DNA from: a virus
Strand: one strand, 5' to 3'
DNA length: 64,000 bases
IMG/VR virus record: IMGVR_UViG_3300034072_001149
Location: 64,001-128,000 of that record
Below the pieces are notes generated by a model, which was given only the letters and a program-made list of their open reading frames with translations, was not told the DNA's origin and ran no database searches. Positions 29,556 through 29,632 of the stretch are shown here, one piece after another (position 1 is the stretch's first letter; every line of letters begins with the position of its first letter). A program made the translations under genes and the position numbers.

Positions 29556-29632
29556 TGGCGCCCTTACCGAGACTTGAACTCGGGACCCACAGATTTAGAG
29601 TCTGTTGCTCTGACCAACTGAGCTATAAGGGC
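29556..29632 (-). tRNA. Amber suppressor tRNA (anticodon CUA), CCA encoded
   Basis: GCCCTTA TA GCTC AGTTGGTCA GAGC A ACAGA CTCTAAA TCTGT GGGTC CCGAG TTCAAGT CTCGG TAAGGGC G CCA; all four stems pair fully; 7-nt loop CU-CUA-AA. Confidence 0.93.

Follow-up and report, generated by a model that had tools for sequence, protein, structure and literature searches.

A probable amber suppressor tRNA and its candidate UAG-gated targets in large soil phages that use the standard genetic code

The 64 000-nucleotide stretch of viral DNA analysed here (the window) carries a tRNA gene with the anticodon CUA that probably specifies a functional phage amber suppressor, the trans-acting half of a small gene switch dependent on suppression. 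Two genes interrupted by UAG within their first codons are its candidate targets. That the tRNA suppresses UAG in vivo, what regulatory purpose this serves and which enzyme charges it are inferences. Most known phage suppressor tRNAs come from gut phages with a genome-wide stop-codon rewrite; the approximately 450-kb soil phages described here use the standard code and keep a suppressor tRNA seemingly for a handful of UAG gates. This would provide a concrete, conserved target for the puzzling suppressor tRNAs of phages, and a minimal form of suppression-based gene control. A literature search yielded no paper on this phage clade, and a search for its cultured member, Sinorhizobium phage Phosso, was without result.

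The tRNA(CUA) gene, its conservation and its identity elements

The window comprises bases 64001–128000 of the IMG/VR record IMGVR_UViG_3300034072_001149 (159.2 kb; CheckV completeness 34%). Its relatives are phages of 360–560 kb, including Phosso (469 kb), which was cultured from soil and has S. meliloti as its host. ARAGORN identified one tRNA in the window, at 29556–29632 (−), with anticodon cta at sequence position 35 (29598–29596). The second tRNA of the record, a tRNA-Leu(UAG), lies at its far end, outside the window.

29556..29632 (−): tRNA(CUA), putative ‘type 1’ suppressor with Lys-like body and G73, 77 nt with encoded CCA
29596..29598 (−): anticodon CUA inside the loop CUCUAAA, unchanged in eight aligned sequences and Phosso

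The gene matched Rfam model RF00005 over the full model length with 73 bits (gathering score 29; E = 4.7e-14). Read directly, the 5′ part of the RNA is GCCCUUA-UA-GCUC-AGUUGGUCA-GAGC-A-ACAGA-CUCUAAA-UCUGU and the 3′ part that follows is GGGUC-CCGAG-UUCAAGU-CUCGG-UAAGGGC-G-CCA. The acceptor stem (GCCCUUA/UAAGGGC) has G1-C72, C2-G71 and C3-G70 and is followed by discriminator G73; the anticodon stem has 5 bp and its 7-nt loop reads C32 U33 C34 U35 A36 A37 A38. The D-loop is canonical with G18G19, the T-loop is UUCAAGU and the variable loop, GGGUC, has 5 nt. All universal tRNA core nucleotides are present (U8, A14, G18G19, G53-T54-T55-C56 and A58), together with G15 and C48 for the 15–48 tertiary pair. 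As expected for an amber suppressor, the anticodon 5′-CUA-3′ sits in a 7-nt loop between U33 and a purine, A37, and A36-A37-A38 is the sequence at which MiaA introduces the i6A37 modification. The first-pass annotation had described an intact cloverleaf with CUA, A37/A38, G73 and encoded CCA as the sole tRNA of the window; ARAGORN, Rfam and direct reading agree on the structure, and ARAGORN on the count. A scan for promoters and terminators around the gene gave nothing better than shuffled sequence.

Orthologous tRNA(CUA) genes were found in seven uncultured IMG/VR phages of approximately 280–465 kb and in Phosso. In each of them the tRNA lies 0.05–2 kb upstream, on the same strand, of a gene for a small synthetase-like protein (the mini-synthetase), which is 71–86% identical to that of the window in the seven closest relatives and 61% identical in Phosso. 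The window sequence and its seven orthologues were aligned (n = 8), with Phosso kept outside the alignment. Over the 21 base pairs, every one of the 168 pair cells holds a standard pair (100%), and compensatory changes on both sides are seen in 15 of the 21 pairs, including 7/7 in the acceptor stem and 5/5 in the anticodon stem. None of 500 shuffles matched the observed pairing and compensation, and slid registers were only 30–44% paired. No variation was seen across the eight sequences in the D-stem, the loop CUCUAAA, G73 or C74, and acceptor pairs 2–71 and 3–70 vary freely. Both the loop and the CUA anticodon recur in the Phosso orthologue, which GenBank labels ‘tRNA-OTHER, Undet’. The anticodon is no sequencing error, because all eight aligned sequences and the cultured Phosso have CUA rather than CTT or another triplet. 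A fixed loop combined with compensated stems is the signature expected of a tRNA selected to decode UAG. The earlier call of an amber suppressor is thus strengthened by complete pairing in eight sequences and compensation in 15 of 21 pairs, and also by the programmed UAG codons in downstream genes described below.

The body of the tRNA is closest to tRNA-Lys. Over core positions 8–65, with the anticodon masked, the nearest phage tRNA-Lys has an identity of 0.84–0.89, compared with 0.77–0.84 for Met, Thr and Phe tRNAs; Lys accounts for 7–8 of the top 20 core matches, and several Lys tRNAs of the relatives are identical in the D-arm, the anticodon stem GCAGA/UCUGC and the variable loop GGGUC. 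The best non-CUA match of the covariance model was a Lys tRNA in 4 of the 10 genomes where it was identifiable. Similarity searches returned mixed Arg, Met, Lys and Asn labels among phage records and, in E. coli, prophage tRNA-Ile only. The proposal of a Lys-like body one change away from tRNA-Lys (CUU to CUA) holds for the core, by a modest margin. Membership of the tRNA-Lys family itself was rejected: CUA replaces the Lys anticodons UUU and CUU, position 73 is always G instead of A, and the acceptor starts variably with GC, GU, CU or CG instead of the Lys mark GGAC, leaving only the core Lys-like.

The complete relatives G001–G004 encode 52–59 tRNAs each, covering all twenty amino acids, and their isotype marks are Lys GGAC...A73, Gly GCGGGYA...U73 (in almost all tRNA-Gly genes), Asn U1...G73, Asp GG...G73, Trp A1...G73 and Gln U1...U73. 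The acceptor of tRNA(CUA) fits no G73 isotype, and the molecule has neither the A20 and C35 of Arg nor the U73 of Cys. The bacterial tRNA-Gly identity set consists of U73, G1-C72, C2-G71, G3-C70, C35 and C36. Set against it, the eight orthologues have invariant G73, C-G at 2–71 in 5/8, G-C at 3–70 in 2/8, and U35 and A36. A non-Gly identity set had been suggested at first pass, and the invariant G73 against the U73 of the phages' own tRNA-Gly, with 2–71 and 3–70 variable, supports that view. tRNA-Pyl typically has a short D-loop without G18G19, a 3-nt variable loop, a 6-bp anticodon stem and PylS as its partner, and was ruled out by the canonical D-loop and T-loop, the 5-nt variable loop and the 5-bp anticodon stem.

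Each complete relative also carries a second, solitary tRNA(CUA) with A73, which has a Lys-type GGAC start in G002 and G003:

L100:1759, L103:583, L108:572, L113:699 and Phosso L160 (record 446731–446806): second tRNA(CUA), with A73

By these sequence marks, the phages keep at least two differently marked putative amber suppressors, and the identity set of the first is unusual, combining a Lys-like core, invariant G73 and a drifting acceptor beside a second, A73 form in the same genomes. G002 has a third CUA tRNA (L101:13330), in its main tRNA array, that is near-identical to the tRNA-Trp(CCA) of G003 (L105:5752; ATCTCCT...AGGGGAT) and differs by CCA to CUA and G73 to A73; it looks like a recent Trp-to-amber conversion.

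Other unusual tRNAs were seen in these genomes. Acceptor mismatches at 3:70 and 4:69 (U.U, C.U or U.C) recur in CUA tRNAs (Phosso L160, L096:4610 and L072:1016). G001–G004 have tRNA genes with a Lys anticodon (CUU), a variable arm of 15–16 nt and U73 (L098:17845, L101:17122, L105:8025 and L110:11486); bodies of this kind are typical of tRNAs for Ser, Leu or Tyr. Variable loops of 11 nt are also found in Asn, Thr and Lys(UUU) genes of relatives, and G005 has an odd tRNA-like gene (L191:16822–16905) in which the anticodon loop (CUUA) has 8 nt, the variable arm is long and position 73 is G.

Genetic code and UAG-gated genes

The tRNA sits in a minus-strand block that runs, in order, CysRS, a 201-aa unknown protein, a K+-channel-like protein, the tRNA, a 262-aa synthetase core (the mini-synthetase), a phosphatase-like protein, a 128-aa unknown protein, a leader mini-ORF, a 119-aa gene and Pth2:

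30767..32116 (−): CysRS, full-length, in the tRNA(CUA) gene block
29644..30105 (−): K+-channel-like protein, 153 aa, two-transmembrane, Ion_trans_2, directly upstream of the tRNA
28715..29503 (−): class IIa synthetase core, GlyRS-like, 262 aa, starting 52 nt after the tRNA
27793..27867 (−): leader mini-ORF MKKILTQH-UAG-APRAPP..., with UAG (27843–27841) as codon 9, preceding the 119-aa gene
27776..27417 (−): 119-aa gene, after the leader mini-ORF
26876..27334 (−): peptidyl-tRNA hydrolase 2 (Pth2) gene, leader MITNSFL then UAG (27313–27311)

A gap of 11 nt separates the stop codon of the channel gene from the downstream tRNA and implies that the two are co-transcribed.

The genome uses the standard code and is not TAG-recoded (code 15). 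A greedy ORF set gave a coding density of 0.920 with table 11, compared with 0.916 when TAG was translated as sense, and coverage did not increase when TGA or TAA was read as sense. Genes end in TAA (103), TGA (80) or TAG (19); TAG is the rarest phage stop, at 8–9% of gene ends versus 26% of stop-like trinucleotides genome-wide. The 19 TAG stops are unprotected, with a median in-frame extension of 12 codons compared with 8–10 for TAA and TGA. When 3236 TAG-containing frames bounded by TAA or TGA were translated and aligned to other genomes across the TAG, G000, G001 and G002 showed no conserved TAG inside a gene; the matches were off-frame or antisense noise, or TAGs just upstream of start codons. 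A release factor (PF00472) was found in none of G000–G003 or Phosso, while control genomes were positive. Elsewhere in the window there is a single 3466-aa ORF (4609–15009, +), and the GC content peaks at 0.56, compared with about 0.45 elsewhere, in 38001–40000, over a 435-aa ORF (38973..40280, −); this region may be a recent acquisition.

Both gated genes lie just downstream of tRNA(CUA). The Pth2 gene has an AAGGA ribosome-binding motif, an ATG, the codons for MITNSFL, UAG at codon 8 and then 144 further codons, with no ATG, GTG or TTG ahead of Met41, which sits past the first β-strand. Pth2 genes gated in the same way, with M[IL][TS]NSFL then UAG, are found in G001–G004 and G012. In Phosso, Pth2 begins MKY then UAG, and the GenBank CDS starts at an internal Met; the more distant G007 has ML then UAG. 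A G73 tRNA(CUA) is present in every one of these genomes. The second gate, a leader of the form M...H-UAG-(AP|VQ)R[AG]PP, is found at 8/8 loci with the adjacent tRNA and at 0/24 other mini-synthetase loci. Like all our co-occurrences of tRNA and gate, these counts were obtained from related genomes and do not represent independent events. A scan of IMG/VR for CUA tRNAs with a generic body returned 65 contigs, three of which, all outside the mini-synthetase contig set, pair a G73 tRNA(CUA) with an adjacent amber-gated Pth2. Their leaders are MNNDKNW (L096), MKAEN (L043) and MTA (L071), each then UAG, and in L071 the leader ATG is 2 nt past the CCA of the tRNA. The base after each target UAG is a purine (A or G), and E. 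coli context-effect work has established that a purine after UAG favours suppression. On these comparisons, Pth2 is a probable target of the suppressor and the R-A-P-P leader peptide a probable second one.

A genome-wide scan for gates, defined as an ATG, 1–13 sense codons, a stop and a long open frame without a start, revealed no convincing gate besides Pth2; the short R-A-P-P leader falls outside this filter. No early UAG gates other than these two were detected in the 159 kb, a pattern that points to targeted read-through rather than recoding. A possible third target, a 214-codon extension after a 60-aa ORF (57022..56195, −), was rejected as a chance frame over two small paralogous genes encoded in other frames. 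The small genes at 56195–57022 (−) have similar C-terminal ends (WKVEIDSEVLAWL... and WQLRLRKEVMDWL...). The complete 543-kb genome of G005 has two Pth2 paralogues, each preceded by M..-UAG, and no tRNA(CUA) was found in it by whole-genome ARAGORN (66 tRNAs) or by covariance model. The gate can therefore exist without the tRNA, or has another reader.

The neighbouring mini-synthetase and the charging of tRNA(CUA)

The mini-synthetase was modelled as a confident class IIa catalytic domain (pLDDT 87.9), and its best sequence and fold matches are GlyRS of the α2 type (8u2q, 2.5e-9; 8t5n, 6e-14); PylS is absent among its matches. It keeps motifs 1–3 and the Gly-pocket glutamates (RPET, GKSFRRE, EFxQxE and E-x-A-x-GLDR), and it has no anticodon-binding domain, so it should be blind to CUA. 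IMG/VR holds 31 relatives of this protein.

The adjacency of the two genes in the window, all seven closest relatives and Phosso could reflect a dedicated orthogonal pair, in which the anticodon-blind enzyme would read G73 and the acceptor end and load glycine or another small residue. Suppression, and hence the switch of Pth2 and the arrest peptide, would then be under the control of a phage enzyme. The confident class IIa core of GlyRS-type fold, with its catalytic motifs kept, is consistent with this, as are the loss of the Lys acceptor marks and a G73 that differs from both the A73 of phage Lys and the U73 of phage Gly tRNAs, in the manner of an orthogonal tRNA. Natural phage TrpRS:tRNA(UCA) pairs in ‘code-change’ operons provide a precedent (PMC12636597; bioRxiv 10.1101/2021.08.26.457843). 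However, members of the enzyme family that are 46–70% identical, with intact motifs, are present in 23 loci without a nearby CUA tRNA, usually in or beside ordinary tRNA arrays, the closest tRNA gene being one for Gly, Glu, Ala, Cys or Tyr. The complete G005 has the mini-synthetase and no tRNA(CUA), G009 and G010 have none by pattern or covariance model, G008 has only the A73 form, and in G011 about 64 kb separate the mini-synthetase from a G73 CUA tRNA. Variation in the motif-2 loop shows no consistent relation to tRNA presence (Phosso groups with the tRNA-less forms), and tRNA(CUA) conserves none of the known acceptor determinants for Gly. Since the core also occurs in complete phages without any CUA tRNA, we regard a dedicated pair as unlikely. 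The comparative data lean against the mini-synthetase as the charger of tRNA(CUA); it counts as a candidate charging enzyme, though probably without being dedicated to this tRNA.

Some of these phages encode GluRS, ThrRS or SerRS. The class I Glu/Gln-type enzyme of G001–G003 was considered as a GlnRS and proved to be a bacterial GluRS, absent from Phosso. Phage-encoded LysRS, AspRS, AsnRS and GlnRS were searched for and none was found, which makes a host synthetase the likelier charger. The acceptor stem drifts while the discriminator stays fixed, as would suit an enzyme that reads the anticodon (U35) and position 73, and classical amber suppressors are usually charged by U35-reading enzymes (GlnRS, LysRS). 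The CysRS of the block was rejected as charger: tRNA(CUA) has G73 where tRNA-Cys identity requires U73. The relatives have a second stripped-down synthetase in their main tRNA array, a HisRS/HisZ-like fragment of 150–206 aa (L219:309–761 in G001; G003:3625–3993; Phosso 4225–4593). [quoted passage not shown] As Phosso is cultured, the charging of phage suppressor tRNAs is directly testable.

Proposed switch, alternatives and comparison with known systems

In the mechanism that we favour, a body of the tRNA-Lys(CUU) type would have undergone a change of U36 to A, with later loss of the Lys acceptor marks and fixation of G73. The tRNA would be transcribed within the minus-strand translation-upkeep block, processed, and charged by a host synthetase for which U35 and the discriminator, but not the acceptor stem, serve as recognition elements. 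Charged tRNA(CUA) would then read the few programmed UAGs, which lie 4–9 codons into downstream genes. Given enough charged suppressor, full-length Pth2 would be made and ribosomes would reach the R-A-P-P arrest motif of the leader, altering expression of the next gene. Tying Pth2 to suppression might scale peptidyl-tRNA recycling to the suppressor's own read-through load. This mechanism has to accommodate the gated Pth2 paralogues of G005, which has no detectable tRNA(CUA), and the 19 ordinary TAG stops, which would also be read through without special protection; the second, A73 suppressor of the complete relatives could also be the relevant one.

Two other explanations do not involve a switch of the phage's own genes as the primary function. 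The suppressor might be directed at host UAG stops, disturbing host proteins or evading defence, with the gated phage genes as secondary sensors. The two or three different CUA tRNAs per relative genome, the lack of a detected phage release factor to rebalance termination and the rarity of TAG as a phage stop would all be compatible with this. We nevertheless consider it improbable: bacteria and phages in general often use TAG sparingly, the sequence indicates no host target, and the conserved, linked features are the phage's own gated genes. A tRNA that does not decode at all, whether a tRNA-Lys look-alike serving as a decoy or spare against an anticodon nuclease or tRNA-targeting defence, or a neutral relic of TAG recoding, seems very improbable. 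Its Lys-like body and its place in a block with genes for RNA repair and the upkeep of translation (the Phosso annotation lists an RNA ligase, phosphatases and Pth2) might suggest such a role, but a decoy for a tRNA-Lys nuclease should keep the Lys anticodon loop, whereas here CUCUAAA is invariant and the stems are compensated. A neutral relic, for its part, would not persist across phages whose neighbouring proteins are only 61–86% identical.

The suppression-dependent switch that we favour has its closest parallel in stop-codon-recoded phages, where suppressor tRNAs have been proposed to gate late genes and a phage tRNA(CUA) is charged by host GlnRS (bioRxiv 10.1101/2021.08.26.457843; PMC12636597). 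Like the recoded crAss-like, Lak and Agate phages, those described here combine a phage tRNA(CUA) with a standard-code host (Borges et al., bioRxiv 10.1101/2021.08.26.457843; PMC9523058; PMC11210395). As in the recoded-phage proposal, genes with an in-frame UAG would be made once the suppressor is present, and charging by a host enzyme is the default expectation. By this analogy, the switch would reproduce on a small scale the ‘late genes need the suppressor’ logic suggested for those phages. The differences are that the genome of the window keeps the standard code, with a coding density of 0.92 and TAG ending 19 genes, that the body is Lys-like with G73 rather than Gln-like, and that these are soil phages, with a cultured relative that infects an alphaproteobacterium, rather than gut phages of Bacteroidota and Firmicutes.

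In the TGA-recoded Jade phages, the code-change module consists of tRNA(UCA), TrpRS and RF1, and the AP1 TrpRS:tRNA(UCA) pair has been validated (PMC12636597). The arrangement in the window resembles this module in placing a suppressor tRNA beside a phage synthetase and upstream of genes that would need suppression. It differs in that the neighbour is a bare GlyRS-type core that also occurs without a suppressor tRNA, in having no release factor gene, and in that the comparative data do not support a dedicated pair.

The classical amber suppressors of E. coli derive from tRNA-Lys, tRNA-Trp (su7) and tRNA-Tyr (supF), and the rules of tRNA identity are those of Normanly and Abelson and of McClain. 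The phage tRNA shares with them an anticodon a single base away from that of a sense tRNA and a loop with A36-A37-A38. Unlike them, it is a natural, conserved gene in which the A73 of tRNA-Lys has become G73 and the acceptor stem drifts. Several orthologues have the anticodon arm GCAGA-CUCUAAA-UCUGC, which we take to be the same as that of supF. With tRNA-Pyl the phage gene has the CUA anticodon in common, and the tRNA-Pyl label attached to CUA tRNAs by ARAGORN and in the Phosso GenBank record reflects a program naming convention.
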